A stretch of DNA of 64,000 bases from an uncultured delta proteobacterium (GTDB taxonomy: Bacteria > Desulfobacterota > Binatia > HRBIN30 > BPIQ01): the NCBI GenBank assembly GCA_963761335.1, contig CAVXGR010000005.1, forward strand, positions 229,684-293,683. Reading direction: 5' to 3'. The notes below the pieces were generated by a model that was given only the letters and a program-made list of their open reading frames with translations, was not told the origin of the DNA and searched no databases. Of this stretch, positions 8,268-56,710 are shown in pieces. The translations under genes were made by a program, and so were the position numbers. Numbering within the stretch: the stretch's first letter is position 1; the number at the start of each line of letters is the position of its first letter.

Positions 8268-8330
8268 GCCACCGGGCCACTGTTTCCGCCCTCGCGAAAC
8301 TCCCCGGGGTGGGTTACGCTGAGGCGACGC

Positions 8331-9080: not shown

Positions 9081-9085
9081 GAGGC

Positions 9086-12335: not shown

Positions 12336-12830
12336 AGTGGCTCGGTGGCTCGGTTATCGGGTTGTCGGGTTATCGAGTTTTGGTGATGGTAGCCGGTGGG
12401 TTTCAACCCGCGGCTGTGGCGTTTGGGCGCCTGCGCCCCTGACGGGGCGCGTGCAGAAGCCTGCCAATTTCCCCGGGTTTCACCCGGGGCTACACGCCTG
12501 CGCCCCCTTCGGGGGCGGCATCCGAATCGGCCTCGCCTGCGCCCCCTTCGGGGCGGCATCCGAATCGGCCTCGCCTGCGCCCCGGGGGCGGCATCCGAAG
12601 CGGCCGATGGGCGTCCAACCTCGTCGCCGGGGGTTGAACAGTCTGTCTCAAGACCTCGGCAAAACGATTCCGCAAGCCCGCGAACCAAGTAGAAGCGGCG
12701 TCTCGCCGCTTCGGAAAGCGCCGGGACGGCGCTTCTACCTCGGTTTGAGACAGCTTCTGAGACCCCCGGCTACCATCAACAGACCCGCCAACCCGCCAAC
12801 CCGATAACCGAGCCACCGAGCCACCGGCTT
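12336..12830. mobile_element. composite non-autonomous repeat element bounded by 28-bp perfect inverted repeats
   Basis: GTGGCTCGGTGGCTCGGTTATCGGGTT at 12336-12365 is the exact reverse complement of 12797-12826. The interior holds family-B palindromes (CCCCGGGTTTCACCCGGGG, GCGCCCCCTTCGGGGGCG x3) and one full family-A MITE (12643-12752). Confidence 0.6.
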
Positions 12831-16640: not shown

Positions 16641-17788
16641 AGCGGCCGGTCGCCGTCGTCGGCGTCGGGCAGACGCATCACAGCTCGCGCCGGGTGGACG
16701 TCAACACCGCCGAGCTGGTGCGTGAAGCGATCGACCGCGCTCTCCTCGACGCCGGTCTCGAGCATCGCGATATCGACGCCATCATCATCGGCAAGGCTCC
16801 GGACATGCTCGAGGGCATCATGCAGCCCGAGCAGCTCCTCATCGGCGCCGTCGGCGGCCATCTCAAGCCCGTCCTGCGCGTGCACACCGCCGGCTCGGTC
16901 GGCGCCTCGACGGCCCTCGCCGGCGTCACCCACGTCACCTCGGGGCTGTTCGACCGCGTGCTGGTGGTCGCCTTCGAGAAGCAGTCGGAGGGCAACGTCA
17001 TGTGGGCGCTGTCGCCGAACATGCCGTTCACGGCGCCGCTGGTGGCCGGGGCGGGCGGCTTCTTCACGCCCTACATCCGCGCCTACATCCGACTGACGGG
17101 GGCGCCGCCGCACATCGGCCCGATGATCGCCGCCAATGCGCGCGCCAACGCCGGCCGCAACCAGTACGCGCACCTGCGCGAGCCGGTGACGGTCGAGGAC
17201 GTCATGCAGTCGCCGATGCTGTGGGACCCGATCCGCTACCTGGAGACCTGCCCGTCGTCGGACGGCGCCGTCGCCCTCGTGATCTCCAGCGAGGAGCAGG
17301 CGCGCAAGGGGCCGCGCAAGCCGGCCTGGGTGAAGTCGGGCGCCTCCTACGCCGAGGCCATGTGGGTGCCGGGCCGCGATCAGGTGAACCCCACGGCCGG
17401 ACGGGTGTGCTCCAAGGCGGTCTATGACGCCGCCGGCATCACCGACCCCTGGAACCAGATCGACGTCGCCGAGATCTACGTGCCGTTCTCGTGGTTCGAG
17501 GCGATGTGGCTCGAGAACCTCGGCTTCTGCGGCCACGGCGAGGGCTGGAAGATCGTCGACCGCGGCGAGCAGAAGTTCGGTGCGCACCTGCCGATCAATC
17601 CCTCCGGCGGCGTGCTGTGCACCAACCCCATCGGCGCCTCCGGCATGCTGCGCCTCGGCGAGGCGGCGCTGCAGGTGATGGGGCGCGCCGGCGAGCATCA
17701 GGTCGAGGGGGCGAAGGTCGCCCTCGGCCACGCCTATGGCGGCGGTGCGCAGTACTTCGCCATGTGGATCGTCGGCAGCGAGCAGTAG
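16637..17788 (+). CDS. thiolase-superfamily protein (SCP-x/Ltp2-like, non-canonical)
   Basis: ATGA start/stop overlap with the previous gene. NPSGG motif. The nucleophile Cys is absent (HTAGSVGAS) and the GHP motif reads TNPIGASG. Confidence 0.75.
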   Translation: MKRPVAVVGVGQTHHSSRRVDVNTAELVREAIDRALLDAGLEHRDIDAIIIGKAPDMLEGIMQPEQLLIGAVGGHLKPVLRVHTAGSVGASTALAGVTHVTSGLFDRVLVVAFEKQSEGNVMWALSPNMPFTAPLVAGAGGFFTPYIRAYIRLTGAPPHIGPMIAANARANAGRNQYAHLREPVTVEDVMQSPMLWDPIRYLETCPSSDGAVALVISSEEQARKGPRKPAWVKSGASYAEAMWVPGRDQVNPTAGRVCSKAVYDAAGITDPWNQIDVAEIYVPFSWFEAMWLENLGFCGHGEGWKIVDRGEQKFGAHLPINPSGGVLCTNPIGASGMLRLGEAALQVMGRAGEHQVEGAKVALGHAYGGGAQYFAMWIVGSEQ

Positions 17789-17871
17789 CTCAGTAGCCCA
17801 GTGGCTCGGTAGGTCTGAGTAACGGGCAACCAGTCGATCTCGGCGCCGCAATTCCTCTCAAGGAGCATTTC

Positions 17872-21326: not shown

Positions 21327-22413
21327 GCGACACCATGGTGATGATGAAGACGATGATCAGCACCCCGATCAGCGTGAACACCGGGCTCCGGCGGTCGCGC
21401 GCCGCGTTGCGATCGAGGAACGGGACCAGAAAGAGGAAGAGGCCGCCCAGGCCGAAGCCACAGATGCCGACGATGTCGCCGTCGATGCCGAGAATCTTGC
21501 CGGGCAGATATTTCAAGCTCTGGGACATGAACGTGAAGTACCACTCCGGGTGGATGCCGGCCGGCGCCGAGGCAAACGGGTCCGCCTTGGCGCCGAGCTC
21601 CCAGGGCAGGAAGGTGCAGAGCACGATCAGGACGCCGAGCACACCGAGCCAGAGGATGGCGTCGCGAAGCATGAACCCGGGGTAGAACGGCATCCCCTCG
21701 ACCTTCTTCCCCTTCGACGAGATCGACTCGCTCATCCCCTGGCGCTGGATGAAGAGGAGATGCAGCCCCAGAACGGCGGTGAAGGCGGCGGGCAGCATGG
21801 CGACGTGGATACCGAAGAACCGCGTCAGGGTGGCGCCGCTGACGCTCTCGCCGCCGCGCAGGAGGTCGGCGATGGCGGGACCCACGACCGGCACGAGACC
21901 GGCGATGTCGGTCCCGACTTTGGTGGCGAAGAACGCCAGCGTGTTCCAGGGCAGCAGGTAGCCGGAGAAGCCGAAGGTCATGGTCAGCAGCAGCAGCACC
22001 ATCCCGGTCATCCAGGTGAGCTCCCGCGGCGGGCGGTAGGCCTTCAGGAAGTAGACGCTGAACATGTGCACGAAGACGGTGAACACCATCAGGTTCGCCG
22101 ACCACGAGTGCAGCGAGCGGATCAGCCAGCCGAACGGAACCTGGGTGACGATGAACTGAACGCTCTCGTACGAGCTGTCGGCGCCGGGCTTGTAATAGAA
22201 GAGCAGCAGCAGGCCGGTGGCGACCTGAATGCCGAAGAGAAAGAGGGAGACGCCGCCGAAGTAGTACCAGGTGGAGCTGACGCGGCCTTCCATGGGGACG
22301 GTCTTGTGACGCAGGAACTCGATCGCCCCACTGATGCCGAGACGCTCGTCGAACCAGCGAGCGACCCCAGACCGAGACGGGCTAGGCGCGCCGGGAGACG
22401 ACGACATCCTCAC
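21304..22413 (-). CDS. cytochrome b subunit of a cytochrome bc-type complex
   Basis: Typical cytochrome b helices with haem-ligand His residues (WSANLMVFTVFVHMFSVYF ..) and PEWYF in the C-terminal part. Confidence 0.85.
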   Translation of the reverse strand: MRMSSSPGAPSPSRSGVARWFDERLGISGAIEFLRHKTVPMEGRVSSTWYYFGGVSLFLFGIQVATGLLLLFYYKPGADSSYESVQFIVTQVPFGWLIRSLHSWSANLMVFTVFVHMFSVYFLKAYRPPRELTWMTGMVLLLLTMTFGFSGYLLPWNTLAFFATKVGTDIAGLVPVVGPAIADLLRGGESVSGATLTRFFGIHVAMLPAAFTAVLGLHLLFIQRQGMSESISSKGKKVEGMPFYPGFMLRDAILWLGVLGVLIVLCTFLPWELGAKADPFASAPAGIHPEWYFTFMSQSLKYLPGKILGIDGDIVGICGFGLGGLFLFLVPFLDRNAARDRRSPVFTLIGVLIIVFIITMVSLAYLKPY

Positions 22414-22834
22414 CTCTCACGTTCACGTCGAACGACTCGAGGGGCGTCGGCGGTGGGCCGCCGACATTCTTCCCGGCGAGATTGTAGCGTCCGTTGTGGC
22501 ACGGGCACCAGATCAGCTCGAGGTCGCTGCGGAACTGCACCGTGCAACCGAGGTGCGTGCAGACGGCGGTGAAGGCCCGAAACTGCCCCGACGGCAGGCG
22601 GATGAGAATCCCGGGCTTCGAGCCGAAGCGGAAGATCAGCCCTGAGTTCGGCTTGACCTGATCGGCCTTCGCCGCCACGACACTGCTCGCCGAGGTCTCC
22701 TGAACCTTCGGCGTCGTGAGATAGCGGGTCACCGGGTAGAGCACGGCACCGAGAAAGGCGAGAAGGCCGCCGGACAGGAAGACGTCGAGCAGGCGGCGGC
22801 GGCTCACCTCGTTGTCTGCCGTGTCGGCGCCCAT
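22382..22834 (-). CDS. Rieske [2Fe-2S] iron-sulfur subunit
   Basis: Box I CTHLGC and box II CPCHNG. N-terminal TM anchor. Confidence 0.8.
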   Translation of the reverse strand: MGADTADNEVSRRRLLDVFLSGGLLAFLGAVLYPVTRYLTTPKVQETSASSVVAAKADQVKPNSGLIFRFGSKPGILIRLPSGQFRAFTAVCTHLGCTVQFRSDLELIWCPCHNGRYNLAGKNVGGPPPTPLESFDVNVRGEDVVVSRRA

Positions 22835-23039
22835 CCAGCTTTGTCTGCCAGCGAACAGCTGTTGCGTCAAGGTGGAAAGTCGCGGAATGTCCAGACTTGT
22901 CGCGACCACACAGGGCGTGCCCTGGGCAGAGCATTTGACTCGACTCGCCGCCTGCTCGATGGTTTGCTCCCATGGAAGACCGTCTGGAGCTTCGGCGAGC
23001 GACCGCTGCGGACCTCGAAACCTCTGGCTAGGTTCATGT

Positions 23040-23260
23040 GCCCCCCGGCGCTCCGTGATCGTAGCCGGGGGTTTCAACCCCCGGCGGGCGGGAACGATGT
23101 CCCTCCGCACCAAAGAAGCGGCGCGGCAGTGCACGAGGAAAGCGGCGAGACGCCGCTTCTACTTGGCTCACTTGCCGTTGGAAAGCATTCGCCGCCGCTC
23201 AGGCGGCGGCCAGTCGCCGAACGAGTCGCGATGGTCGCCGCGAGGTCCAGCGGCGCCGTA
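23040..23260. repeat. intergenic repeat patch: a CCGGGGGTTTCAACCCCCGG palindrome plus a partial family-A repeat
   Basis: Shares GAAGCGGCGAGACGCCGCTTCTAC with 9130-9185 and 12700-12755. Confidence 0.5.
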
Positions 23261-27941: not shown

Positions 27942-27987
27942 ATCGCCCCGAGCCGCAGCCCTCAAGGTCGACACGGGGCACTTGCCG

Positions 27988-30900
27988 TCACGACGCCTGC
28001 GCCGTGCCGCGACCCTTCCACAGCGCGAAGATGGCCGGATAGACGGTCAGCTCCAGCAGGAACGAGGTCGCCAGCCCGCCGACCATGGGCGCGGCGATGC
28101 GGCGCATGACGTCGGCGCCGGTGCCGGTGCTCCACATCACCGGCAGAAGGCCGATGAAGGTGGTGAGCACGGTCATCAGCTTCGGGCGGATGCGCCGCGC
28201 GGCGCCCTCGACGATGGCCTCGCGCAGGTCCGCCGGAGATCGCATCCGGCCCTCCTCCCGGGCGCGCTCGTAGGCGAGCTTCAGGTAGAGCAACATGACC
28301 ACGCCGGTCTCGGCGTCCAGACCGGCGAGGGCGATGAGCCCCACCCAGACGGCGACGCTGGTGTTGTAGCCGAGCAGGTAGAGGAGCCACACGGCGCCGA
28401 TCAGAGAGAACGGCACCGCCGCCAGGACGATCGCCACCTCGGTCGCCGAGCCGGTGTTGAAGTAGAGCAGCAGGCAGATGAGGAAGAGCGTGACCGGCAC
28501 CACCACCTTGAGGCGCTCCTTGGCGCGCTCGAAGTACTGGAACTGACCGGCCCACTCGAGGCGCAGGCCCGCAGGCAGGCGCACCTGGCGGGCGACCACC
28601 TCCTTGGCCTGCGCGACGTACTCCGCGATCGCCCGGTCCCCGGTGTCGACGAAGACGTAGCCCACCAGGCGGCCGCCCTCGCTGCGGATCATCGGTGGTC
28701 CGGTGGCGAACTCGATGTCGGCCACCTGCCGCAGGGGCACCTGCGCGCCTCCCGGAGTCGCCACCAGCACGCGCTCGAGGGCCGTCGGGTCGTCGCGGAA
28801 ATCGCGAGCGTAGGCGACGCTCACCGGGTAGCGCTCGCGCCCCTCGACGGTCTCGGACACCTGCATGCCGCCGATTGCCGTCTGCACCACGTCGTTGACG
28901 TCGGCGACGCGCAGCCCGTAGCGCGCCGCCGCGGCGCGATCGACTTTCACGTCGAGATAGAAGCCGCCGGTGGAGCGGTCGGCGAAGGCGCTGCGCGTGC
29001 CGGGGATCGCCGCAACCGCCTGCTCGATGCGCACCGCGGTGTCCTCGATGGTCGCCAGATCGTCGCCGAAGATCTTGATGCCGAGTGGGCTGCGAATGCC
29101 GGTGGAGAGCATCTCGGTGCGCGTCTGGATCGGCATCCACCAGATGTTCGGCATGCCGGGATAGCGCAGCGCGCGATCCATCTCGGAGATCAGGTCGTCC
29201 CAGGTCATTCCTTGCCGCCACTGCTCCCGCGGCTTGAGCATTACCACCGTCTCGACCATGCCGATCGGCGCCGGATCGGTGGGTGAGCTGGCGCGCCCCA
29301 TCTTGCCGAAGACGCTCATCACCTCGGGGAACTGCTTGAGCTTGCGGTCCATCGACTGCAGCAGCACGCTGGCCTCGCTCATCGACATTCCCGGCGGAGC
29401 GGTCGGCATGTAGAGGATGGCGCCCTCGTTGAGCGGCGGCATGAACTCGCTCTGGATCTGCAACGCCGCCGGAACGGTCAGGGCCACGGCGATCACCGCC
29501 AGGGCGATGACCGAGCGACGGAAGCGCACCACGAAACGGACCACCGGCACGTAGAGGGCGATGAGAATGCGGTTGAGCGGGTTGGCCTCCTCGCCGCGGA
29601 TGCGGCCGCGCACGAAGATGGCCGCCAGCGCCGGGGTGAGCGTGATCGCCAGCAGCGCCGCGAAGCCCATGGAGTAGGTCTTGGTGAAGGCCAGCGGCCG
29701 AAACAGGCGGCCCTCGACCGCCTGCAGGGTGAACACCGGCAGAAAGGAGACGGTGATCACCAGGAGCGAGAAGAAGATGCTCGGGCCCACCTCCTGCATG
29801 GCCCCGATCAGCACCTGCAGTCGGTCGCCGGGACGGCCGACCTCCTCCCAGACCTCGAGCTTCTTGTGGATGTTCTCGATGATGATGATCGAGGCGTCGA
29901 CCATGGCGCCGATGGCCACGGCGATGCCCCCGAGCGACATGATGTTGATGGTCAGCCCCTGGTAGAACATGGGCACGAAGGAGAGCAGCACGGCCAGTGG
30001 CAGGGTGACGATCGGCACCAGAGCGCTGCGCGCGTGCAGCAGGAAGACGAAGATCACCAGGCTGACCACCAGCATCTCCTCGATGAGCGTGTGGCGCAGG
30101 GTGTCGATCGAGGCCTCGATCAGCCCCGAGCGATCGTAGGTGGTGACCACCTTCACGCCTGCCGGCAGCGTCTTCTGCAGCTGCGCCAGGCGCTCCTTCA
30201 CCGCGCCGATGACGCGCAGGGCGTTCTCCCCGTAGCGCATGACGACGATGCCCCCGACCACCTCGCCGCGGCCGTCGAGATCGGCGAGGCCGCGGCGCGG
30301 CGCCGGACCGAGCTTCACCTCGCCGACGTCGCGGATGTAGACCGGGGCGCCCGTGGTCCCGACCTTCAGCGGCACGAGCTCGAGATCCTGCTTCTTCTTC
30401 ACGTAGCCGCGACCGCGCACCATGAACTCGTGCTCGGAGAGCTCCAACACCTGGCCGCCGACCTCCTGGTTCGACTCGCGCACCGCCTGCACCACCTCGC
30501 GCAGGGGGATGCCGAGGGCCACCAGCTTGTTCGGGTCGAGAAGGATCTGGTACTCCTTGCCGAAGCCGCCGACCGAGGCGACCTCGGCGACTCCGGGCAC
30601 GCTCTCGATGGCGTAGCGCAGGTTCCAGTCCTGCAGGCTGCGCAGCTCCTGGAGGTCGAGCGTGCCGCTCTCGTCGACGAGCGCGTACTCGAACACCCAG
30701 CCGACACCCGTGGCATCGGGGCCGAGGACCGGCGTCACCCCCTGCGGCAGCGCATTGGAGACCTCGTCGAGATACTCGAGGACTCGAGAGCGCGCCCAGT
30801 AGATGTCGGTTCCGTCCTCGAAGATGGCGTAGACGAAGGACATGCCGAACATCGACTGGCCGCGCACGTACTTGATGCGCGGCGCCGCCAGGAGGCTTGC

Positions 30901-31110
30901 GGAGATTGGATAGGTGATCTGGTCCTCGACGATGTCGGGGCTCTGTCCGGGCCACTCGGTGAAGACGATCACCTGCACGTCCGACAGGTCCGGTATGGCG
31001 TCGAGCGGCGATTGGCGCATCGACCACGCCCCCCATGCCGCCAGGGCGGCGACGAAGAGCAGCGTGAGAAGAGGGTGCCGCGCGCAGGCGGCGATGACCC
31101 GGCCGATCAT
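27988..31110 (-). CDS. heavy-metal efflux RND pump, CusA/CzcA family
   Basis: 1040 aa. N-terminus MIGRVIAACARHPLLT with conserved HME-RND blocks throughout. The 279-aa upstream extension of the raw ORF is Arg-rich junk, so the start was taken at the internal Met. Confidence 0.9.
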   Translation of the reverse strand: MIGRVIAACARHPLLTLLFVAALAAWGAWSMRQSPLDAIPDLSDVQVIVFTEWPGQSPDIVEDQITYPISASLLAAPRIKYVRGQSMFGMSFVYAIFEDGTDIYWARSRVLEYLDEVSNALPQGVTPVLGPDATGVGWVFEYALVDESGTLDLQELRSLQDWNLRYAIESVPGVAEVASVGGFGKEYQILLDPNKLVALGIPLREVVQAVRESNQEVGGQVLELSEHEFMVRGRGYVKKKQDLELVPLKVGTTGAPVYIRDVGEVKLGPAPRRGLADLDGRGEVVGGIVVMRYGENALRVIGAVKERLAQLQKTLPAGVKVVTTYDRSGLIEASIDTLRHTLIEEMLVVSLVIFVFLLHARSALVPIVTLPLAVLLSFVPMFYQGLTINIMSLGGIAVAIGAMVDASIIIIENIHKKLEVWEEVGRPGDRLQVLIGAMQEVGPSIFFSLLVITVSFLPVFTLQAVEGRLFRPLAFTKTYSMGFAALLAITLTPALAAIFVRGRIRGEEANPLNRILIALYVPVVRFVVRFRRSVIALAVIAVALTVPAALQIQSEFMPPLNEGAILYMPTAPPGMSMSEASVLLQSMDRKLKQFPEVMSVFGKMGRASSPTDPAPIGMVETVVMLKPREQWRQGMTWDDLISEMDRALRYPGMPNIWWMPIQTRTEMLSTGIRSPLGIKIFGDDLATIEDTAVRIEQAVAAIPGTRSAFADRSTGGFYLDVKVDRAAAARYGLRVADVNDVVQTAIGGMQVSETVEGRERYPVSVAYARDFRDDPTALERVLVATPGGAQVPLRQVADIEFATGPPMIRSEGGRLVGYVFVDTGDRAIAEYVAQAKEVVARQVRLPAGLRLEWAGQFQYFERAKERLKVVVPVTLFLICLLLYFNTGSATEVAIVLAAVPFSLIGAVWLLYLLGYNTSVAVWVGLIALAGLDAETGVVMLLYLKLAYERAREEGRMRSPADLREAIVEGAARRIRPKLMTVLTTFIGLLPVMWSTGTGADVMRRIAAPMVGGLATSFLLELTVYPAIFALWKGRGTAQAS

Positions 31111-32720
31111 TGCCAGTGCTCCATCGCCAGCTTGAGCCGGCTCTCGGCGGCGATCAGGAAGTTCCCGGAGGTGACGATGACATCGCCCTCCTGCAGTCCC
31201 GCGGTGATCTCCACCAGATTTTCGGACTTCTGTCCGATCTCGACGCGCTGCGGCTTGAGGCGTCCCTGGCCGAGATCGAGGAAGACGAAGCGGCGCGCAC
31301 CGGCATAGAGGATCGCCTGCTCCGGGACGGTCAGGCGCTCGCCGAGGTCGCGCTGCAGCTCGACGTTGGCGTACATGTCCGGCTTCAGACGGCGGCCGGG
31401 GTTGTCGAGCTCGACGCGTACGCGGCCGGTGCGCGTCGTGTCGTCGAGGTAGGGATAGACGAAGGCGACGCGCCCGTGCAGGACCTCGCCGGGAACATAC
31501 GCCAGGGTGACCACCGCTTCGTCTCCGGGATGCACCAGGGCCAGCTCCGACTCGTAGACCTCGGCCTCCACCCAGACGCGATCCAGGCCGGCGATGCGGA
31601 ACAGCTTCATGCCCGGCTCGACGGCGGCGCCCTCGACGACGTTCTTCTCGACCACGGCGCCGGACACCGGAGAGAGGATGGGAACATACTCGAGCGGCTT
31701 GCCGGAGCGCGCGATCCGATCGATCTGCGCCTCGCCCAGATCCCACAGGCGCAGTCGCTGCCGCGCCGCGCCCACCAGGTAGTCGGCGCGATCGGGTGCC
31801 GAGGTCTTCGCCGCGGCGCGCCGGCTGGCCAGCGCCGTGAGGAGCTCCTGCTGGGTGGCGTAGAGATCCGGGCTGTAGAGGGTGAACAGCGGCTCGCCCT
31901 TGTGCACCTCCTGGCCCGGAGTGTCGGCGTAGAGAGTGCCGATCCACCCCTGATACTTGACGGAGACGTCGGCGAGGCGGGTCTGGTCGTAAACCACCTT
32001 GCCGACGGCGCGGATGGTGATCGTCAGCGGTCGCCGCTGCACCGGCGCCGTGGTGACGCCGATGGTCTGCCGGCGCTGCGCATCCACCATGATGACTCCG
32101 GTCTCCGCCTCGCTGCGCGTCACCGGCACCAGATCCATCGAGCAGATCGGGCAGGTGCCCGGCTTCTGGCTGCGCACCGACGGATGCATCGAGCAGGTGT
32201 AGTAGGCGATCTCGTCACCGCCCGCGGCGGCGTTCTTTCCGTCGTCTGCCGACCCCGTTCCGGTCGATCCGGCGGTCAGCCCGCGACGGCCGACGGTGAT
32301 GCCGTAGTTGGCCTCCGCGGAAGTGCCGCCGGCGGCGATTGCGACCTGCACCGTCCAGCTGCCCCCCATCGGGAAGTCCAGAGCGGCGATGTAGCGCCCG
32401 CCGCCGAGCGGCGTCACCGGACCCTTGCCGCGCATCTCCGACATGGCGCCCATGGCCGGCATCAGGTAGCCCACCTGGATCTGGGCGTTCTCGACTGGAG
32501 CGCCGAGGGCGTCGGTGAGGCGCAAGCGCAGGGCATTTCCCTTTTCCGCGGGCGGATCGGGGCGGATCTCGGCGGCGATGGTGAAGTCCCCCGCGCGAGT
32601 CTCCACGGTGTTGCCGGGGGGGCGGTCGCAGGAAAGTGGCGTCGCCACCAGGGTGAGCATCGACATGAAGCGCGCCAGCGTCGAAAGGCGCGTGAGCGCA
32701 ATTGACGTGAACATCTTCAT
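31107..32720 (-). CDS. efflux RND periplasmic adaptor (membrane-fusion protein), CusB-like, with N-terminal heavy-metal-binding domain
   Basis: YYTCSMHPSVRSQKPGTCPICSMDLVPV heavy-metal-binding motif. Adaptor beta-barrel and lipoyl regions. ATGA overlap with the pump gene. Confidence 0.85.
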   Translation of the reverse strand: MKMFTSIALTRLSTLARFMSMLTLVATPLSCDRPPGNTVETRAGDFTIAAEIRPDPPAEKGNALRLRLTDALGAPVENAQIQVGYLMPAMGAMSEMRGKGPVTPLGGGRYIAALDFPMGGSWTVQVAIAAGGTSAEANYGITVGRRGLTAGSTGTGSADDGKNAAAGGDEIAYYTCSMHPSVRSQKPGTCPICSMDLVPVTRSEAETGVIMVDAQRRQTIGVTTAPVQRRPLTITIRAVGKVVYDQTRLADVSVKYQGWIGTLYADTPGQEVHKGEPLFTLYSPDLYATQQELLTALASRRAAAKTSAPDRADYLVGAARQRLRLWDLGEAQIDRIARSGKPLEYVPILSPVSGAVVEKNVVEGAAVEPGMKLFRIAGLDRVWVEAEVYESELALVHPGDEAVVTLAYVPGEVLHGRVAFVYPYLDDTTRTGRVRVELDNPGRRLKPDMYANVELQRDLGERLTVPEQAILYAGARRFVFLDLGQGRLKPQRVEIGQKSENLVEITAGLQEGDVIVTSGNFLIAAESRLKLAMEHWQ

Positions 32721-34357
32721 CGCGGTTCTCCGTGGTCGGACTGCTGGTGGGTTTCCGCCGTTGTCGGAACGGCGGGGGCGAACGCCGTGCCGGGAAGGCC
32801 GCCGAGGAGGCGGGTGAGCTCGGCCAGACGCCGGTGGAAGTCGGCGAGCGCCTCTTCGTAGCTCAGCTGCACGGCGCGCTGGTTGCGCTCCGCGTCGATG
32901 AGGGCGAGGAAGCTGTTGCCGCCGCTCTCAAATCCGGCGCGCGCCGCCTGCACCTGATCGCGGGCGGCGGGCAGCAGGCGGCCGAGGTAGAGGTCGACGA
33001 TGTGGTGCATCTCCAGCAATCGCGCCGCCGTTTGCTCGACGTCGGAGCGGACGTCGTCAATGAGGCGCTGGCGCTCGCTCTCTGCCTGCTGCAGCTTGGC
33101 GCGCGCCTCGGCTTCGGCGGCGTCGAGACGCCCGCGCCAGATCGGCAGGTTGACAGAGGCGCCAATCATCCAGCGGTGCTCCTCGTCGTTCCACATCGAG
33201 TTGTATGAGCTGGTGAGGCCGAAATCCGGATAGCGCTCCAGCCCGGCCAGCTCCACGGCGGCGCGGCGGCCGCGGACATCGGCGGCGGCCATCGCCAGCT
33301 CCGGTCGCCGTTCGACGGCGAGATCGGCGAGGCGATCGACATCGGTGTGGGCCATCTGCAGCAGCGGGCTCTCGGTGGGCGGCGGCAGCATCTTTGGCGG
33401 CGGCGGCAGCGGCGCCGCATAAGATCGGTGCAGCAGCGTGTTGATGCGGGCGACGAGCACGTCGCGGTCGGTTGCCAGGGTCACCTTGCGGTGCTCCAGG
33501 TGCGCCAGCTCGACCTCGGCCGCCAGCGGCTCCTGCTGCGACAGACGTCCGGCGGCGTACTGGTCGGTGGCGGCGCGCTTGAGCGCGGCGAGCAGGCGGA
33601 CGTGCTCGTCGTTGATCTCGTCGGCGCGGTCGAGAAGGTAGTAATCGTAGAAGAGAAAGGTCGCCGCCAGAGCCGTCTCCAGGCGCAGCGAGTCGTACGC
33701 CTGCCGGCTCGATTCCGCCTCGGCGAGGGCCGCCTCGCCGCGCAGCCGCAGCTTTCCCGGCCAGGGGAGCTTCTGTGAGAGCTCGATCTGCTGGCCGTAG
33801 TCGACGCTGCTCGAGCCGATGCTCAGGGGCGCCAAGCCGTAGGCGAACATCGGATCGTCGAGCGCCGTGGCTTGCGGGTAGCGCGCTACGGTGGCGGTCC
33901 AGGCGCTGCGCAGCGCCGCCAGGCTCGGGTTGCGGCGCAGCACGGCGCGCCGCAGCTCGTCGACGTCGAGCACGGCTTCGCCCTGAAAGAGCGGCGCGTC
34001 ACTGAACGCGGCGCCCCGCCGCGTAGTGAGGAGGCGGGACGCCTCCTCTACAGTGGACGCGGCGTCCCGCCGCGTGGTGAGGAGGCGGGACGCCTCCTCT
34101 ACAGTAGACGCGGCGTCCCGCCGCGTGGTGAGGAGGCGGGACGCCTCCTCTACAGTGGACGCGGCGTCCCGCCGCGTGGTGGGGAGGTGGGACGCCTCCT
34201 CTACAGTGGACGCGGCGTCTCGCCGCGTGGTGGGGAGGCGGGACGCCTCCTCTACTTTGGGCCGCGGCCCGGAGCAGCCGGAACCACCGGCGGCGATGAT
34301 CAGCATCGAGCTCCAGAGCACGCGAGCGATAGGTCGTCGCATGTGCAGTACTCCCAC
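32717..34357 (-). CDS. TolC-family outer-membrane efflux lipoprotein (CusC/CzcC-like)
   Basis: Lipobox (AAGGSGCSG) and paired outer-membrane-factor repeats. ATGA overlap with the adaptor gene. Confidence 0.8.
   Translation of the reverse strand: MGVLHMRRPIARVLWSSMLIIAAGGSGCSGPRPKVEEASRLPTTRRDAASTVEEASHLPTTRRDAASTVEEASRLLTTRRDAASTVEEASRLLTTRRDAASTVEEASRLLTTRRGAAFSDAPLFQGEAVLDVDELRRAVLRRNPSLAALRSAWTATVARYPQATALDDPMFAYGLAPLSIGSSSVDYGQQIELSQKLPWPGKLRLRGEAALAEAESSRQAYDSLRLETALAATFLFYDYYLLDRADEINDEHVRLLAALKRAATDQYAAGRLSQQEPLAAEVELAHLEHRKVTLATDRDVLVARINTLLHRSYAAPLPPPPKMLPPPTESPLLQMAHTDVDRLADLAVERRPELAMAAADVRGRRAAVELAGLERYPDFGLTSSYNSMWNDEEHRWMIGASVNLPIWRGRLDAAEAEARAKLQQAESERQRLIDDVRSDVEQTAARLLEMHHIVDLYLGRLLPAARDQVQAARAGFESGGNSFLALIDAERNQRAVQLSYEEALADFHRRLAELTRLLGGLPGTAFAPAVPTTAETHQQSDHGEPR
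34015..34265. repeat. in-frame tandem repeat, 51 bp x about 5, encoding VEEASRL(P/L)TTRRDAAST in the N-terminal linker of the outer-membrane factor
   Basis: Each DNA unit carries two GC-rich hairpins (GAGGAGGCgggacGCCTCCTC; GGACGCgGCGTCC). Confidence 0.8.
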
Positions 34358-34478
34358 GGTCAGAGTTCATGAGAACGAGGGCACCCCACCACCGGGCGCG
34401 GAGATGCGGTATTCGCGCGCCGCGGCGGGCGCGAGCTGAACGGGACGAGGCCGTCCCGCCGTCACCGACCGAGGGTGA

Positions 34479-34892
34479 TCAGATCAGAAAGGAGCAGTTG
34501 CGAACGAAGAGAGGTAGGGGAGCGCCATGTGGAGGACCGCGCCAGGAAACGGCTTCCATCCGCGGCGCCGGGCTCGGGGCGTGAGTCACGGCGGTGGTGG
34601 CTGCCAGGACGGACGGAGGAGCGCCAGTGTCGGCGGCGACCGAGGAGACGGCTCCCGCCGGAGTGCGCTCGATTGTGCGCATCTGGCAGCAGCTCTTCGG
34701 CACCGCCGAGATCGAGGCACCCGAGGAGTTGCCGTTCTTCTGCGGGCAGCAGCAGGACAACCGCGCCTGTCCATCCACCGAGCAGATATAGAGGAGCATG
34801 CCCGAGAAGGCGGGCGAGGCGAGCAGCACCAGCGGCAGGATGAGCGCCGCGAGGGCTCCCTTGCTGCGGCTGGTGGTGCGGCGGATGAACAT
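34479..34892 (-). CDS. small secreted Cys-rich protein (SCCCPQK.., ..SCCQ motifs) directly upstream of the heavy-metal RND efflux operon
   Basis: Signal peptide and strong GC3 bias over about 80 codons. Homologous to the small ORF upstream of the second efflux operon (43491-43875). Confidence 0.4.
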   Translation of the reverse strand: MFIRRTTSRSKGALAALILPLVLLASPAFSGMLLYICSVDGQARLSCCCPQKNGNSSGASISAVPKSCCQMRTIERTPAGAVSSVAADTGAPPSVLAATTAVTHAPSPAPRMEAVSWRGPPHGAPLPLFVRNCSFLI

Positions 34893-35599: not shown

Positions 35600-36010
35600 C
35601 ACAAGTCAGCCGCTACTTCGAAAATCTGCTGGGTGAAGGTCTGGCGGAGCCCCGGCGCTTGGGGTGGAGATTATCGCCCCGGAGGGGCGCGGGCATGTAG
35701 CCCCGGGTGCCAACCCGGGGACCGCGTCCCGATTGCCCGGATCTGCGCCCCGGAGGGGCGCAGGCGTAGGGGCCGCGTGAATCACGTCGATGAGCTTTCC
35801 ACGCACCCAGCGGTGATCATCGGCGTACAGGCGCGACATCGACGAAATTTTGCCCGCGCCCCTGGCGGGGCGCCTATGACGGACCGTGCACTTTTCCCCG
35901 GGTTTCACCCGGGGCTACACGCCACTGCCCCTCCGGGGCGAACTTCGCCGAGGCCGGAACCCCCAAATCTCTTCCCGGGTCAGAACCCCGGCCTCATTTT
36001 CATCGTCTGC
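35600..36010. repeat. MITE-like repeat family B (roughly 400 bp, full-length copy)
   Basis: Related copies at 58409-58625 (5' part, above 90% identity) and 56040-56710 (reverse orientation with an internal duplication of about 205 bp). Imperfect terminal inverted repeats of about 70 bp starting GAAAAT and ending CGCCCCGGAGGGGCG. Fragments also lie inside 12420-12640. Confidence 0.7.
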
Positions 36011-36105: not shown

Positions 36106-36579
36106 CTACCCGAGCGCGCCGGAAGCGAACTCCTCGGCGCTCAAGACCTGCACTCCGTAACGCAGCAGGGAGCCGAAGTGGCGCCGATTGTCCGTGACCA
36201 CGACGCTGGCGCCGTTCGCTCGTGCGGTCTGGGCGATGTGAAGATCGTACGCGCGTCCTCCGCTGATCCGATCGGCAACGGCATCGTCGAGCAGGCGCAA
36301 GCGCTCCGAGACAGGCAGGTCGTACACCTCGAACCGCTTGAGGATCTCCTCACGGAGCAGGCCGGCGGCATCCGCTGGGGATAGACGCAGCTCCGCAGGC
36401 AGGCGAGTCGAGACCGAGTAGAACTCCAGGCAGCAGTGCCACGCGGTGGCGGGCTTTCTCACTCGTCCTTCGGCAATGGCTGTCATCACGCTTTGGGAGT
36501 GCACGGCTGCCGGGCCGATGTCGATCAGGCCGGCCAGCAGGATCGTCGTATCGAAGAACACCGGCTTCACCACGGCCAT
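36106..36579 (-). CDS. vapC: PIN-domain ribonuclease toxin, VapC-like
   Basis: PIN acidic residues (VFFDTTIL.., ..VVTDNRRHF). About 157 aa. Confidence 0.7.
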   Translation of the reverse strand: MAVVKPVFFDTTILLAGLIDIGPAAVHSQSVMTAIAEGRVRKPATAWHCCLEFYSVSTRLPAELRLSPADAAGLLREEILKRFEVYDLPVSERLRLLDDAVADRISGGRAYDLHIAQTARANGASVVVTDNRRHFGSLLRYGVQVLSAEEFASGALG

Positions 36580-36824
36580 CGATCGCGCTCTTCTTCGACG
36601 AGCCGAGCGACATCGATCTTTGGCAGTGACCTCGCGTCTACCGAGGGCTTGGCGACGAGCCGCTTTCCGACCCGCGTGAGCTTCGGGCCTGGGGCCGTGC
36701 GGCTCAGCCGAATGCTGGAGTCCTCGAGCACGACCTCGATCTCGGTCCCCGGCACGAGCCCGGCCCGCCGCCGGAGATCCGCGGGAATCACCACTCTTCC
36801 TGCCCGATCAATGGTAGTTTTCAT
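36567..36824 (-). CDS. vapB: AbrB/MazE/SpoVT-type antitoxin, VapB-like
   Basis: 85 aa. Swapped-hairpin-like N-terminus RAGRVVIPADLRRRAG. Overlaps the vapC start by 13 nt. Confidence 0.65.
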   Translation of the reverse strand: MKTTIDRAGRVVIPADLRRRAGLVPGTEIEVVLEDSSIRLSRTAPGPKLTRVGKRLVAKPSVDARSLPKIDVARLVEEERDRWPW

Positions 36825-40063: not shown

Positions 40064-41845
40064 CTACTCCCGGCCACCCGCCGCCGGCGTCTTCTCGACC
40101 TGCGACTCCGGCACCGGGATGAGCGACATGCCGCAGATCGGGCACTTGCCCGGCCCGGGGCGGTGCACGGACGAGTGCTCCGGCATCGGGCAGGTCCAGT
40201 AGGCGATCTTCGGCTTCTCGACGTGTCCGCCGCGCTTACGGACCGGCACCAGCTGCATGCCGCAGATCGGGCACCTGCCCGGCTTGTCGTAGAGAATGTC
40301 GGAGTGCTCCGGCATCGGGCACACGTAGAAGAGCTCCCCCTCGCCGGGCGGAGGCGCTGCGGCGCCGCTCTGGCGGGTGGCGTCCTTGATCGGCTGGGCG
40401 CCGCCGACGGTTCCGGGCTCCATGAACTTCACCGCGGCCTCCCGCAGGCGACTCTCGGAATCGAGGAGGAACTGCCCGGAGATCACCACCGTCTCGCCCG
40501 GCGAGAGGCCGGAGAGCACCTGCAGGTAATTGTTGTCGTCGCGCGCCCCGATCTTCAGCTCGCGGGGCTCGAAGTGGCCGGGGCGTGGCATGACGAAGGC
40601 GACGGCGCGCATGCCGGTGCGGATGACCGCCATGTCCGGAACCATGGTTGCCTCGGCGGCGACCTGGCTCACCAGCGACACGGTGGCATACATGCCGGGC
40701 TTCAGCTCGTATCCGGGATTGTGGAACTCCATGCGCACCGGCACAGTGCGCGTTTTGGCTTCGAGATACGGGTAGACGTAGGTAACGCGCCCGCGGAAGG
40801 TCCGGCCCGGCAGGTAGGTGAGCGTCATCAGAGCTTCCTGTCCGAGCTTCACGTAGGGGGCGTCGGACTCGTACACCTGGGCGATCACCCAGACGTTGGA
40901 GATGTCGGCGAGCTTGAAGACGTCGGTGCCGGCGGCGATCTTCTGTCCCTCGACGACGTTCTTCTGGGTGACGATGCCGGTGAAGGGCGCGCGGATGGAG
41001 AGCGTCTTCGTCACCTCGCCGCTCTTCTTCAGCTGCGCGATCTGCTCGGGGGAGATGTCGAAGAACTCCAGCCGCGTGCGCGCGTCGCGCACCAGCGCTT
41101 GCGAGTCGATGCGCGATCGGGGAATCAGTGGCAGGTCCGCCGTCTGCTCGTTGCGCAGCGCCGCGACGTATTCCTGCTGGGCCGAGAACAGCTCCGGCGA
41201 GTACAGGTCGAACAGCGGATCGCCCTTGTGCACCTGCTGGCCGGTCTGATCCACGTAGAGCTTCTCGATCCAGCCGCCCACCTTGGTGGCGACCGCCGCC
41301 AGCGTGGTCTCGTCATAGGCGACGTTGCCGAGGGTGCGGATGCTCTTGTTGAGTGGCGCGCGGATCACCTTGTCGACGCGCACGCCCATGTTCTGCTCGA
41401 TCACCGGGTCAATGCGGATGGTTCCGGCAGAGGCTTCGTCGGCGTACACGGGGACGAGGTCCATCCCCATCGAGTCCTTGCCCGGCTCGCTGTGGGTCTC
41501 CCCGGGAATCATCGACGATTTCCAGTAGAGGGTCTTGCGCTCCGGGGCTGCGGCTTCCGTCCGTTTGATCGGTGGTGACGCCGCCGGCTGGCTGAGACCC
41601 ATGGCGGCGGCGCGGTCCGCGGCCATGGGTTGCAGCTTCATGCCGCACTTCGGGCAGTCGCCGGGATGGTCCTGGACCACCTCCGGGTGCATGCCGCAGG
41701 TGTACCAGGTCCTGGCGCTCTGCGGCGCCGCGCTCGCGTCGACGACGCTCTCCTGGTGCTGCCGCTGCATCCACAGCCAGGCGCTGCCGGCGCCGGCGGC
41801 GAAGACGATACCGGTGAGGGCGATGAGGGAAATGGCGCGCTTCAT
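40064..41845 (-). CDS. efflux RND periplasmic adaptor, CusB-like, with three heavy-metal-binding-domain motifs
   Basis: N-terminal YTCGMHPEV..CPKCGMKL. Two C-terminal copies YVCPMPEHS..CPICGMQL and YWTCPMPEHS..CPICGMSL. Start taken at the internal Met MKRAISL. Confidence 0.85.
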   Translation of the reverse strand: MKRAISLIALTGIVFAAGAGSAWLWMQRQHQESVVDASAAPQSARTWYTCGMHPEVVQDHPGDCPKCGMKLQPMAADRAAAMGLSQPAASPPIKRTEAAAPERKTLYWKSSMIPGETHSEPGKDSMGMDLVPVYADEASAGTIRIDPVIEQNMGVRVDKVIRAPLNKSIRTLGNVAYDETTLAAVATKVGGWIEKLYVDQTGQQVHKGDPLFDLYSPELFSAQQEYVAALRNEQTADLPLIPRSRIDSQALVRDARTRLEFFDISPEQIAQLKKSGEVTKTLSIRAPFTGIVTQKNVVEGQKIAAGTDVFKLADISNVWVIAQVYESDAPYVKLGQEALMTLTYLPGRTFRGRVTYVYPYLEAKTRTVPVRMEFHNPGYELKPGMYATVSLVSQVAAEATMVPDMAVIRTGMRAVAFVMPRPGHFEPRELKIGARDDNNYLQVLSGLSPGETVVISGQFLLDSESRLREAAVKFMEPGTVGGAQPIKDATRQSGAAAPPPGEGELFYVCPMPEHSDILYDKPGRCPICGMQLVPVRKRGGHVEKPKIAYWTCPMPEHSSVHRPGPGKCPICGMSLIPVPESQVEKTPAAGGRE

Positions 41846-43305
41846 GATCTGTTGCTCCCATTCGTCGATTCGGTTGGGGCGGGGGCCGTCGCCGGCTCGA
41901 GGTCGGCGCGCCGCGGCACCTGCACGCCGATCAGCTGGCGCAGGTCGGCGAAGCGCTGCTCCAGCTCCGCCAGGGCGCGGTGGTAGGAGAGCGTGAGGTT
42001 GAGCCACTTGCGCCAGTTCTCGATCAGCGCTGTGAACTCGATGGCATTTGCCTGGTAAGCGGAGTTGGAGGCCTCGATCGCCTGCCAGGCGCGCGGCACG
42101 ATGAGATCGCGGAACAGAAGCGCCTGGCGGTACTGCGTGTCGATCTTTACCAGCGTGTCCTGGAGCTGGAGGAAGATCTGGTTGCGCAGCTCGTCGTACT
42201 CCTCGACCGAGGCGAGCGTCTGCGCGTTGCCCTCGAGGACGCGGGCCCGCAGTCGCTTCCACCAGATCGGCAGGTTCAGGCCCAGCGATAGATTCCAGGC
42301 GTCGTCGCCGGTGCGCACCGGGCTGATGCCCGAGCTGGAGATGGCCGTGTACGTCGTGCCCAGGGTCAGATCCGGATAGTAGTTGAGATGCGCCAGATCG
42401 ACGGCCTCGAGGTCGCGCCGGATCTGGGCCCGCAGTCGCTCCAGGCGCGGGTTCGAGGTGACGGCCCGGTCGATTGCCTGCGGCAGCTTCCACTCCACGG
42501 CGGCCAGCTCGAAGGGGCGGGGCGGGGGCAGCGGCGCGTCCACCGGTCGATTCATCAGGCTGTCGAGCTGCGCCTGGGCCGTGGTGCGTTGCTGCTCGAG
42601 GGTGATGAGGTCGTTGGCCAGCCCGTAGAGCTCGACCTCGGCGCGCAACACGTCCTGCTGCGTCGCCTGACCCGTGCGGTAGCGGGCGGCGGCGACCTCG
42701 CGGATCTGGCCGAGGAGCCTCTCACTCTCGCGGGTGATCTGGATGGAGACCTCGGCGAGGTAGTAGCTGTAGTAGGCCCTCTGCACCTGACCGACGGTCG
42801 AGACCCGCGCCTCGTCAATGCCGTCCAGAGCCATGCGCACCGCCTGCTCGGCGACGCGCCCGCGGGCCGCCAGCTTGCCGGGGAAGGGCAGCTTCTGCGA
42901 CACGCCCACGGAGCCGGCCATCATTCCGGCGGCGGTCTCGATCATGTCGCCGGTGGGCGGGATCAGGGTCAGCATCGGATCGTCGAGCGAGGTCATCTGC
43001 GGGACCTGGTATCCGAGAACCTGGGCCTGGCGGACGGCGCGGCGAATCGCGGGATTCTCGGCGAGGGCGACGCGGACGTAGTCGTCCAGCCCGGCGCCCG
43101 AAGGCAGGGGCTCGACAGGCGGAGGCGCCCCGGCGTGCAGGCTCTGCGCCGCCGTATCGACGACGGCCTGATCGTCTTCGACGGCCGGCTGCAGCGGCGC
43201 CGCTTCGGCGGCGACGCGTCGCTGCAGTTTGCCGTCTACCGCGGCGCAGCCGGTGACCGCCAGCAGCGCCAGCAGGGCGATGAAATGTATCGGTTGTGGC
43301 TTCAC
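41842..43305 (-). CDS. TolC-family outer-membrane efflux lipoprotein (CusC/CzcC-like, second copy)
   Basis: Lipobox LLAVTGCAA. Outer-membrane-factor repeats. 4-nt overlap with the adaptor gene. Confidence 0.8.
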   Translation of the reverse strand: MKPQPIHFIALLALLAVTGCAAVDGKLQRRVAAEAAPLQPAVEDDQAVVDTAAQSLHAGAPPPVEPLPSGAGLDDYVRVALAENPAIRRAVRQAQVLGYQVPQMTSLDDPMLTLIPPTGDMIETAAGMMAGSVGVSQKLPFPGKLAARGRVAEQAVRMALDGIDEARVSTVGQVQRAYYSYYLAEVSIQITRESERLLGQIREVAAARYRTGQATQQDVLRAEVELYGLANDLITLEQQRTTAQAQLDSLMNRPVDAPLPPPRPFELAAVEWKLPQAIDRAVTSNPRLERLRAQIRRDLEAVDLAHLNYYPDLTLGTTYTAISSSGISPVRTGDDAWNLSLGLNLPIWWKRLRARVLEGNAQTLASVEEYDELRNQIFLQLQDTLVKIDTQYRQALLFRDLIVPRAWQAIEASNSAYQANAIEFTALIENWRKWLNLTLSYHRALAELEQRFADLRQLIGVQVPRRADLEPATAPAPTESTNGSNRS

Positions 43306-47149: not shown

Positions 47150-47194
47150 GCGGCGGTGCGGGTCGCGAGCACCGCAGTGCCGCCGCCGAAGGTT

Positions 47195-47278
47195 GTTAGG
47201 TGGTTGCGTTGTTGGTTGTTGGTAAGAAGGGGGGACTGACCTAACAACCTAACAACGTAGCAGCCAACAACCCGCCCG
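47195..47278 (+). terminator. long hairpin built from GGTTGTTAGG / CCTAACAACC motifs downstream of hppA
   Basis: GGTTGTTAGGTGGTTGCGTTGTTGGTTGTTGG .. loop .. CCTAACAACCTAACAACG..CCAACAACC. There is no U-tract, so an intrinsic-terminator role is uncertain. Shares the motif of the 54225-54460 array. Confidence 0.35.
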
Positions 47279-54241: not shown

Positions 54242-54460
54242 GTTGTTAGGTTGTTAGGTTGTTAGGTTGTTAGGTTGTTAGGTTGTTAGGTTGTTAGGTT
54301 GTTAGGTTGTTAGGTTGTTAGGTTGTTAGGTTGTTAGGTTGTTAGGTTGTTAGGTTGTTAGGTTGTTAGGTTGTTAGGTTGTTAGGTTGTCAGCTCAGTC
54401 GTTGAAGAGGGTTCATCCGTACCTAACAACCAACAACTCAACAACTTAACAACCTGCCCT
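54225..54460. repeat. tandem array of about 22 copies of the octamer GGTTGTTA, followed after a spacer by about 4 inverted copies (TAACAACC-like)
   Basis: Read directly from the sequence. The dxs stop codon TAG lies in the third unit. The 3' inverted copies can pair with the array to form a hairpin. Confidence 0.9.
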
Positions 54461-56039: not shown

Positions 56040-56710
56040 CGGCTCACCAGCAGACGATGAAGATGAGGCTGGGGATCTGCCCCGTAGAGAGATTTGGCGG
56101 TTCTCGCCTGGGCGAAGTTCGCCCCGGAGGGGCGGTGGCGTGTAGCCCCGGATGAAACCCGGGGAAAAATGCGCGCTCCGTCATAGGCGCCCCGCCAGGG
56201 GGCGCGGGCAGATTTTCGTCGATGTCGCGCCTGTACGCCGATGATCACCGCTGGGTGCGTGGGAAGCTCATCAACGTGATTCACGCGGCCCCTACGCCTG
56301 CGCCCCTCCGGGGCGCTGATCTGGGCAATCGGAACGCGGTCCCCGGGTTGGCACCCGGGGAAAAATGCGCGCTCCGTCATAGGCGCCCCGCCAGGGGCGC
56401 GGGCAGATTTTCGTCGATGTCGCGCCTGTACGCCGATGATCACCGCTGGGTGCGTGGGAAGCTCATCAACGTGATTCACGCGGCCCCTACGCCTGCGCCC
56501 CTCCGGGGCGCTGATCTGGGCAATCGGAACGCGGTCCCCGGGTTGGCACCCGGGGCTACATGCCCGCGCCCCTCCGGGGCGATAATCTCCACCCCAAGCG
56601 CCGGGGCTCCGAGAGACCCTCCGGGGCGATAAGCCTCCACCCCAGCGCCGGGACTCCGCCAGACCTTCACCCAATAGATTTTCGAAGCAGGCTACTTTTG
56701 CGGCTCGAGG
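56040..56710. repeat. family-B MITE-like element in reverse orientation with an internal tandem duplication of about 205 bp
   Basis: 56150-56350 and 56355-56560 are near-identical. The ends match the reverse complement of the 35600-36010 ends. Confidence 0.7.

Follow-up and report, generated by a model that had tools for sequence, protein, structure and literature searches.

Palindromic repeats between and within genes

GTAG repetitive extragenic palindromes (REPs) are palindromes of 20-40 nt with a terminal GTAG (GTGG in some families, a known variant being O. terrae GTAG-20), stems of 6-9 bp and loops of 2-3 nt, and their sub-families differ by complementary stem changes (PMC3733652). They are found singly, in head-to-head dimers (GTAG outside, spaced by 1-5 bp), and in clusters of tandemly reiterated dimers; most are extragenic and lie between convergent genes, and some are found in frame within open reading frames (ORFs) (PMC3733652). 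The intragenic GTAG REPs are mostly dimers or groups encoding 20-30 residues, with clusters encoding 43-82 residues in Thauera and R. conorii, and Di Nocera, De Gregorio & Rocco (2013) suggested that they are neutral in flexible linkers or termini (PMC3733652). Here, we describe five in-frame 51-bp repeat units inside an outer-membrane factor (OMF) gene, located on a 64,000-nucleotide stretch of DNA from an uncultured delta proteobacterium (Desulfobacterota; Binatia; contig CAVXGR010000005.1, positions 229,684 to 293,683 of the forward strand), which as a whole is referred to as the window. The 51-bp unit is very probably a head-to-head GTAG-REP dimer, and the five units a tandem array resembling the bacterial interspersed mosaic elements of type 2 (BIME-2), placed in frame in the N-terminal tether of a CusC-type protein.

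In E. coli, BIME-2 are tandem arrays of REPs and inverted REPs, with near-identical copies at each locus and a strain-variable number (PMC3333891); strand transfer by TnpA_REP, a REP-associated tyrosine transposase (RAYT), can assemble BIME-2-like tandems in vitro (Ton-Hoang et al. 2012, PMC3333891). Two inverted REPs also form the presumed mobile unit of the REP doublet-forming hairpins known as REPINs (Bertels & Rainey 2011, PMC3116915). The array shares with BIME-2 the alternation of REP and inverted REP, the fixed short spacing, the near-identical tandem copies at one locus, and the strain-variable number; however, BIME-2 are extragenic and built from imperfect REPs of 30-40 nt, whereas the hairpins here are perfect and shorter (23 nt). 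As in REPINs, each unit carries two inverted REPs, but REPINs have a spacer longer than the 4 nt found here. Another kind of in-frame palindrome, the Rickettsia palindromic elements (RPEs) reportedly described by Ogata and colleagues in 2000, is said to consist of selfish palindromes that are tolerated in surface or linker regions of genes, each of them 100-150 bp long and inserted singly, in a genome that is rich in AT. The array is likewise an in-frame selfish palindrome, but the RPE sequence is unrelated, and RPEs are not tandemly amplified GTAG-REP dimers.

The likeness to the GTAG REPs of Di Nocera et al. extends to the GTAG/GTGG head, the stem, the loop, the head-to-head tandem dimers, and the in-frame insertion. 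What differs is the extent (ten REPs and 85 residues, slightly above the largest reported cluster), the host (the tether of an efflux lipoprotein, as compared to the replication and repair genes emphasised there), and the source, an uncultured high-GC organism; in addition, the copy number is shown here to vary between alleles, and a decayed relic is recorded in an ortholog. The array thus belongs to a class already described between and within genes, and it represents no new mechanism.

Anatomy of the 51-bp array

The array and its host gene comprise the following features:
34001-34255, minus strand: in-frame 51-bp array of five units encoding 85 residues (exactly 5 x 51 nt in codon phase)
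34205-34255, 34154-34204, 34103-34153, 34052-34102, and 34001-34051, minus strand: the five array units of 51 bp, from the in-frame reading
32717-34342, minus strand: OMF gene, OEP/TolC family, CusC-like, 541 aa (PF02321; ORF 32717-34357)
34274-34342, minus strand: lipoprotein signal peptide MRRPIARVLWSSMLIIAAGGSGC (lipobox Cys codon at 34274-34276; lipobox AAGGSGC read directly)

Tandem Repeats Finder placed the repeat at 34006-34255, with a period of 51, 4.9 copies, 95% matches, no indels, and a score of 451. Translated unit by unit, the array reads VEEASRLPTTRRDAAST / VEEASHLPTTRRDAAST / VEEASRLLTTRRDAAST (twice) / VEEASRLLTTRRGAAFS. Each unit consists of a 23-nt REP-a (GTAGAGGAGGCGTCCCGCCTCCT), a 4-nt CACC spacer, an inverted 23-nt REP-b that is the reverse complement of GT[A/G]GACGCGGCGTCCCGCCGCGT, and a 1-nt linker. 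The 23-nt module is composed of a GTAG head, an 8-bp stem, and a 3-nt TCC loop, and the GTAG heads are outermost in the dimer; the ten REPs of the array therefore alternate in orientation, separated by linkers of 4 nt and 1 nt by turns. The GTAG head is present in all five REP-a modules. In the predicted DNA fold, a single unit forms two hairpins, one with a stem of 9 bp and the other with a stem of 8 bp, both with loops of 3 nt (dG -21.8 kcal/mol, z = -6.4), and the mRNA fold of the whole array reaches -176 kcal/mol (z = -7.7 as compared to shuffles). With regard to REPIN-type pairing, the two REPs of the coding unit are approximately 71% complementary, and the predicted fold favours two separate hairpins.

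A search of the window with the 51-mer, allowing up to three mismatches, matched four array units, with 0.00 matches expected from shuffles, and found no copy outside the array in the 64 kb. Rfam contains no family that covers the array, and no promoter- or terminator-like sites were seen at 33800-34600.

Other classes of element were considered and rejected for this segment, namely a CRISPR-like array (spacers are absent), an intrinsic terminator (a T tract is absent), and an integron attC site (no core-site motif on reading the sequence). Two antisense ORFs, 33872-34372 (plus strand) and 34026-34439 (plus strand), were set aside as shadow ORFs of a sequence with 68% GC.

The same REP family between genes of the window

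Modules of the same kind were found at four intergenic loci:
12689-12738: extragenic REP doublet, GTAGAAGCGGCGTCTCGCCGCTT, CGGA, and inverted GTAGAAGCGCCGTCCCGGCGCTT (sequence search)
9131-9180: second extragenic REP doublet, 49 of 50 positions identical to 12689-12738 (sequence search)
23140-23162, minus strand: lone extragenic REP, GTAGAAGCGGCGTCTCGCCGCTT, whose partner is degenerate; located immediately upstream of the Rieske gene 22382-23134 (minus strand)
62108-62130, plus strand: lone extragenic REP consisting of the identical 23-mer, whose partner is degenerate; located upstream of the nitronate-monooxygenase-like gene 61080-62057 (minus strand)

The 23-mer GTAGAAGCGGCGTCTCGCCGCTT starts at 9131, 12689, 23140, and 62108 (0-1 mismatch), and its partner GTAGAAGCGCCGTCCCGGCGCTT at 9158 and 12716. 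Both doublets lie between convergent genes, one between the luciferase-like/DUF1329 genes 11271-12335 (plus strand) and 12829-14262 (minus strand) and the other between 8331-9080 (plus strand; DUF3108) and 9912-10397 (minus strand; AhpC). Both have a 23+4+23 geometry, which is also that of the coding unit. The extragenic REP, used as a query, matches modules of the array at three mismatches, with 0.00 matches expected by chance from shuffles; the doublet at 12689-12738 is identical to the coding unit 34104-34153 at 38 of 50 positions (76%), and plain BLAST also joins the two (74.5% over 51 nt). The six positions at which the REP-a of the doublet differs from that of the coding unit form three compensatory pairs. 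A GTAG head is present in five of the six extragenic modules.

Covariation was examined in a set of 26 modules drawn from the array, the extragenic sites, two orthologous loci (L021 and L019), and two metagenome contigs (L127 and L075). In this set, stem cells were paired in 92% of cases (80% in shuffles), three of the eight stem pairs changed on both sides, and the covariation score of 0.277 (0.069 in shuffles) was reached in none of 500 shuffles. Across the window, 25 perfect hairpins with a GT[AG]G head were found, as compared to 0.9 in Markov controls; the window is REP-rich, a second REP family included. In size and hairpin form, in their head, in their dispersed copies within 64 kb, and in their compensatory stems, the modules are GTAG REPs. 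As the unit belongs to a dispersed palindromic family that is also present in intergenic DNA of the window, the array can be described as an inserted repeat element.

It is possible to imagine a native origin instead, in which slippage multiplied 17 residues of the original linker, the palindromes being incidental or later and the extragenic look-alikes being unrelated GC-rich hairpins. Such an origin would be compatible with the linker being hypervariable in all homologs and with a single homologous stretch, AEEDALALPLMRRDAAST, that lacks good hairpins in an ortholog with 83% identity (L019). However, this stretch itself aligns to approximately 1.5 decayed REP dimers, GTAG head included; the extragenic elements agree with the coding unit in GTAG head, stem length, loop, spacing, and overall identity to a degree for which no chance matches are expected, and the stem differences are compensatory. 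We thus regard a native coding repeat as very improbable.

Two larger repeats surround the extragenic doublets:
12631-12758: composite repeat of approximately 129 nt with the REP doublet at its core and outer inverted ends TGTCTCAAGACC / GGTTTGAGACA (sequence comparison)

This composite repeat is 86% identical to 9074-9201, and both resemble a miniature inverted-repeat transposable element built around a REP doublet. A BLAST search of the extragenic element against plasmids gave no match.

Host gene and translation of the array

ORF 32717-34357 (minus strand) is the sole long, high-GC3 ORF that spans the array, and PF02321 matches it in two stretches (E = 1.7e-44). A database record (P0001; 541 aa, 100% identical) places the start at ATG 34342, with GGGAG upstream. 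The closest homologs with a named source are from Thermoanaerobaculia and Myxococcota, which, like an Acido-Lenti-1 RNA match in the window, gives no more than a hint of an Acidobacteriota-like lineage. The array begins six codons past the lipobox Cys, and the conserved body follows directly after it (DAPLFQGEAVLD...), with conserved alignment columns of the OMF body starting at residue 125. The host is an OMF lipoprotein of the TolC/OprM/CusC family, located in an operon with a fusion protein. Two further genes of this operon were annotated as follows:
31107-32720, minus strand: CusB-like membrane-fusion protein (HlyD_D23, YtkA, and HMBD, from domain hits), the next gene of the operon
27962-31036: putative resistance-nodulation-division (RND) pump ORF of 1024 residues, after the fusion-protein gene (from its position and from ACR_tran matches of the syntenic L019 and L021 genes)

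Di Nocera et al. warn that annotation errors account for many of the "intragenic" REPs placed at N-termini, and in principle the array could lie in a 5' untranslated region as an ordinary REP cluster, with the OMF starting downstream of the repeat and the repeat mis-annotated as coding. This is extremely improbable here. A signal peptide and lipobox are found only upstream of the array, and they are near-identical in the four orthologous loci (L019, L020, L021, and L022); the next Met past the array is found only in a DDPMF motif, approximately 50 residues into the body (as read from the translations), and the reading frame is open in both the five-unit allele of the window and the three-unit allele of a relative described below. 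Since a conserved signal peptide and lipobox precede the array, a conserved TolC-like body follows it, and no other signal peptide or plausible start is found after it, the array must be translated.

In an AlphaFold2 model of the OMF, which was based on 56 homologs and had no alignment depth at residues 63-112, the TolC-like body (from residue ~125) was predicted with a predicted local distance difference test (pLDDT) score >90, and residues 18-62 with a pLDDT <50; helices were predicted at residues 63-112, which correspond to units 3-5, with a pLDDT of 50-80. The paralogous OMF of the window (41842-43305, minus strand) has a non-repetitive linker of 55 residues.

An earlier reading of this DNA (the sequence-only reading) had noted about five 51-bp tandem copies at 34015-34265, with two GC-rich hairpins per unit and a period divisible by three, in the N-terminal linker of an OMF whose paralog lacks the repeat. 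The copy number agrees with both Tandem Repeats Finder and the codon phase; the array itself stands, and its position was off by approximately 10 nt. The hairpins were recovered in the unit fold, the open frame in both alleles is in keeping with an in-frame period, the PF02321 match and the placement between lipoprotein signal peptide and TolC-like body bear out the proposed host and site, and the absence of the repeat from the paralog was confirmed. What that reading missed is that each unit is a GTAG-REP doublet, of a class already described, also inside genes.

A MazE-like antitoxin/PIN-domain toxin pair (36106-36824, minus strand; assigned from the syntenic L021 genes) is located between the two RND efflux operons of the window and is kept in the sister strain L021.

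Copy number in related loci

Four orthologous loci were compared at the array site:
L021 (ENA ERZ25039539 contig_58901, syntenic): OMF body 98.7% identical to the window; three in-frame 51-nt units
L019: OMF body 83.2% identical; approximately 1.5 decayed units
L020: OMF body 83.6% identical; unrelated linker
L022: OMF body 82.4% identical; unrelated linker

The flanks of the site are the same in L021 and the window, and the two differ in length by 102 nt, which equals two units. The first and last units of L021 are orthologous to the first and last units of the window, and its middle unit has kept a perfect GTAG REP-b. The linker of L019 aligns to approximately 1.5 decayed units with a score of 44, as compared to 17 for the L020 control; the stretch AEEDALALPLMRRDAAST contains a GTAG-headed REP-b relic that encodes MRRDAAST, and no perfect hairpin remains. 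The linkers of L020 and L022 showed no similarity to the 51-bp unit, and in more distant OMF homologs the linker is about 40-70 residues long and unrelated, this linker being hypervariable. Copy number across the orthogroup is thus 0, approximately 1.5 (decayed), 3, and 5. With alternating REPs, tandem arrangement, and five units as compared to three in the sister strain, the array is BIME-2-like.

Short tandem arrays are prone to mis-assembly, which makes an expanded or collapsed array a conceivable artefact. Nine specific substitutions distinguish the five units, though, an identical protein is known from a database record of a 473-kb contig, and the separate assembly of the sister strain likewise carries in-frame repeats at this site, with unit variants of its own; an assembly artefact can accordingly be regarded as having next to no likelihood.

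The sequence-only reading had proposed the array to be either a variable linker or an inserted repeat element, and had named invariant copy number or faulty assembly as outcomes that would speak against it. The linker is variable, as copy number differs between close relatives (five units in the window, three in L021, approximately 1.5 decayed in L019, and none in L020 and L022), and the presence of the REP family between genes of the window, with 0.00 chance matches, supports an inserted element as well. The difference between the window and L021 shows that copy number is not invariant, and the unit-specific substitutions together with the independent sister-strain assembly make faulty assembly unlikely. 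As to whether the unit occurs elsewhere, the REP family does so at four intergenic loci of the window, whereas the 51-mer at up to three mismatches does not.

In both L020 (5749-6000) and L022 (2835-3060), signal peptide and OMF body do not share a reading frame, suggesting an assembly indel or a pseudogene. The unrelated linker of these two loci holds a long palindrome of its own, GGCGACGTGCCGGTAGCCGGCCACGTCGCC. Many fragmented genes were seen on ERZ25039539 contigs, suggesting indel-rich long-read assemblies.

Origin and role of the array

A REP doublet would have entered the OMF linker via RAYT-type single-strand transposition or via recombination. Insertions would survive only where the frame stays open; in the one used, GTAG is read as GTA-GAG, and the +1 frame would read a TAG stop. 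The doublet plus one linker base would then give the 51-nt period of 17 codons, and slippage, unequal recombination, or RAYT strand transfer would subsequently change the copy number, as in the BIME-2 arrays of E. coli. Since the period of 51 nt equals 17 codons, a change in copy number keeps the frame; since the linker of this OMF family is hypervariable and for the most part without structure, the additional 17 residues per unit would be tolerated.

Among the five units, nine unit-specific substitutions relative to the consensus were found, of which three are synonymous and six non-synonymous; hairpin-breaking changes of two kinds (CTC to CCC and CGC to CAC) occur in units 1-2 and are uncompensated. 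Taken together, these changes fit neutral decay better than selection on the peptide or on the RNA structure. The array is probably a near-neutral passenger that makes the length of the lipid-anchor tether polymorphic.

Alternatively, the array may have acquired a function, either as an exapted helical spacer between anchor and barrel or through ten mRNA hairpins that tune translation or stability, with copy number as the tuning knob. The mRNA fold is far more stable than that of shuffles, AlphaFold2 places helices in units 3-5, and the hairpins are near-perfect despite an apparently old insertion, all of which would be expected of a functional array. However, the hairpin breaks in units 1-2 are uncompensated and the ratio of non-synonymous to synonymous changes looks neutral, promoter- and terminator-like sites are absent from the surrounding segment, orthologs with 83% identity as well as the paralog do without the array, and the helices were predicted without alignment depth. 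We therefore consider a functional array unlikely. Ten strong hairpins may affect translation or mRNA stability, and nothing found supports such an influence. An exapted "length dial", in which the copy number of a selfish palindrome, driven by RAYT or slippage, would reversibly alter the length of the anchor tether or the translation of the first gene, is a speculative idea to which we give little credence.

Several observations weigh against an in-frame array of GTAG-REP dimers as set out above. The REP-b heads in the array are mostly GTGG (three modules), with one GTAG and one CTGA. The first half of the middle unit of L021 (8100-8126; CGCAGCGACGCCCCCTACTCCATCCCG, encoding RSDAPYSIP) is not REP-like. 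The relic in L019 implies that the insert is old, although the hairpins in the window and L021 are near-perfect, unless turnover, homogenisation, or re-insertion took place. Only six extragenic modules are visible in the 64-kb window. A regular expression for the HUH motif, applied to six-frame translations, found no credible ORF for a RAYT (Y1/HUH transposase) in the window or in L019-L022, which is a further difference from the BIME-2/RAYT system. Finally, the part of the tether formed by units 3-5 may, according to the AlphaFold2 model, be helical and not unstructured.

The RSDAPYSIP stretch of L021 bears a faint likeness to the native SDAPLF just past the array.

Related elements in other organisms

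A loose hairpin pattern, searched against metagenome contigs, identified a non-coding dispersed element of approximately 95 nt:
L127, ~1235-1330; L037, the same locus reversed; L075, ~2275-2375: ~95-nt element (JGI Ga0194112/13/25, lower-GC organism), with other flanks in L075

The 49-nt core of this element, GTAGACGAGGCGTCCCGCCTCGTAAGACGCGGCGGGACGCCGCGTCTAC, is 90% identical to the 51-bp unit of the window. The L075 copy is bounded on both sides by a perfect inverted repeat of 15 nt (CTCTTGCAAAACCCC / GGGGTTTTGCAAGAG), and in the L127 relative a count by eye gives 21 paired positions out of 23 for the two REPs; no Rfam family covers the L127 element. It was the comparison with the L127/L075 element that allowed the two-module architecture, with its inverted 23-nt modules, to be recognised. 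Matches to the core pair (GGCGTCCCGCC, 10-14 nt, GGCGGGACGCC) in metagenome contigs numbered 123, of which approximately one third had GT[AG]G...C[CT]AC heads; this looser pattern is itself palindromic and hence matched generic hairpins too, and it still revealed a wider REP superfamily. A strict two-hairpin pattern gave no match in metagenome contigs. The 21-mer of hairpin 1 had 18 single matches in unrelated phyla in a genome contig collection without the source genome; most fell in unremarkable sequence lacking a GTAG head, and the search was uninformative.

At the protein level, phmmer with the 85-residue array against 1.84 billion representatives gave nine weak matches, eight of them to unrelated periodic proteins and only one, P0128 (E = 8e-5), of relevance. 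P0128 is a TPR protein with predicted N-terminal 18-residue repeats (...TRQDVASTVEAASS...) that are encoded by approximately 3.5 tandem in-frame GTAG-REP dimers with a period of 54 (L143, 40-260; JGI 3300009513, Ga0129285_10029356; a contig with 50% GC). Translating the tail-to-tail junction (CTAC, one base, GTAG) yields the motif ASTVE(E/A)AS. The ORF reaches the contig end, and L143 is possibly a second in-frame, putatively coding REP array, or else a mis-called start. A protein homology search with a chimeric four-frame peptide found nothing, the source protein included, and was counted as uninformative, probably owing to low-complexity words.

Other repeats in the window

A second GTAG-REP family (family B; GTAGCCCCGGGTG..AACCCGGGG) was observed at six positions:
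12471-12493, minus strand
23061-23084, plus strand
35697-35720, plus strand
35896-35918, minus strand
56536-56559, minus strand
58487-58510, plus strand

The copy at 58487-58510 overlaps an Acido-Lenti-1 RNA (58465-58510, minus strand; 40 bits), which is the only match in the window at the Rfam gathering score. Because of this overlap, the Acido-Lenti-1 "sRNA" motif may be a REP-type repeat in the genome studied here.

A repeat of approximately 195 bp is present in four copies that are 94-100% identical, namely a tandem pair (56157-56351 and 56353-56546), a reverse copy (35710-35903), and a partial reverse copy (58501-58625); it ends beside a family-B REP and holds a short ORF fragment (..MSRLYADDHRWVRGKL..). 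A 38-bp unit (CGCCTGCGCCCCCTTCGGGGGCGGCATCCGAATCGGCCT) is repeated three times at 12495-12605, with its own hairpin in each unit, and shares the convergent intergenic region with the REP doublet 12689-12738 and a family-B REP. We also observed a perfect octanucleotide array (GGTTGTTA) of 21.8 copies at 54217-54390, and other short tandem repeats of period 8, with differing units, at 8246-8280, 9813-9934, 12337-12379, 12783-12826, 17783-17812, 47191-47272, and 54425-54453; repeats with a period of 8 cannot be coding.

Implications

If the length dial were real, it would provide population-level tuning of metal efflux, and the near-perfect hairpins in an old insertion would reflect selection or active turnover. 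For annotation, the array represents a warning that, where a coding tandem repeat contains palindromes, it should be compared with the REP families of the genome before it is called a functional protein repeat. The locus extends GTAG-REP biology to an uncultured high-GC lineage and presents, at an unusual host site, three evolutionary stages side by side, with five units, three units, and a decayed relic. It shows how a selfish palindrome adds protein sequence, in that a REP doublet whose frame is open and whose period is a multiple of three gives rise to a length-polymorphic 17-residue repeat in an exported lipoprotein.

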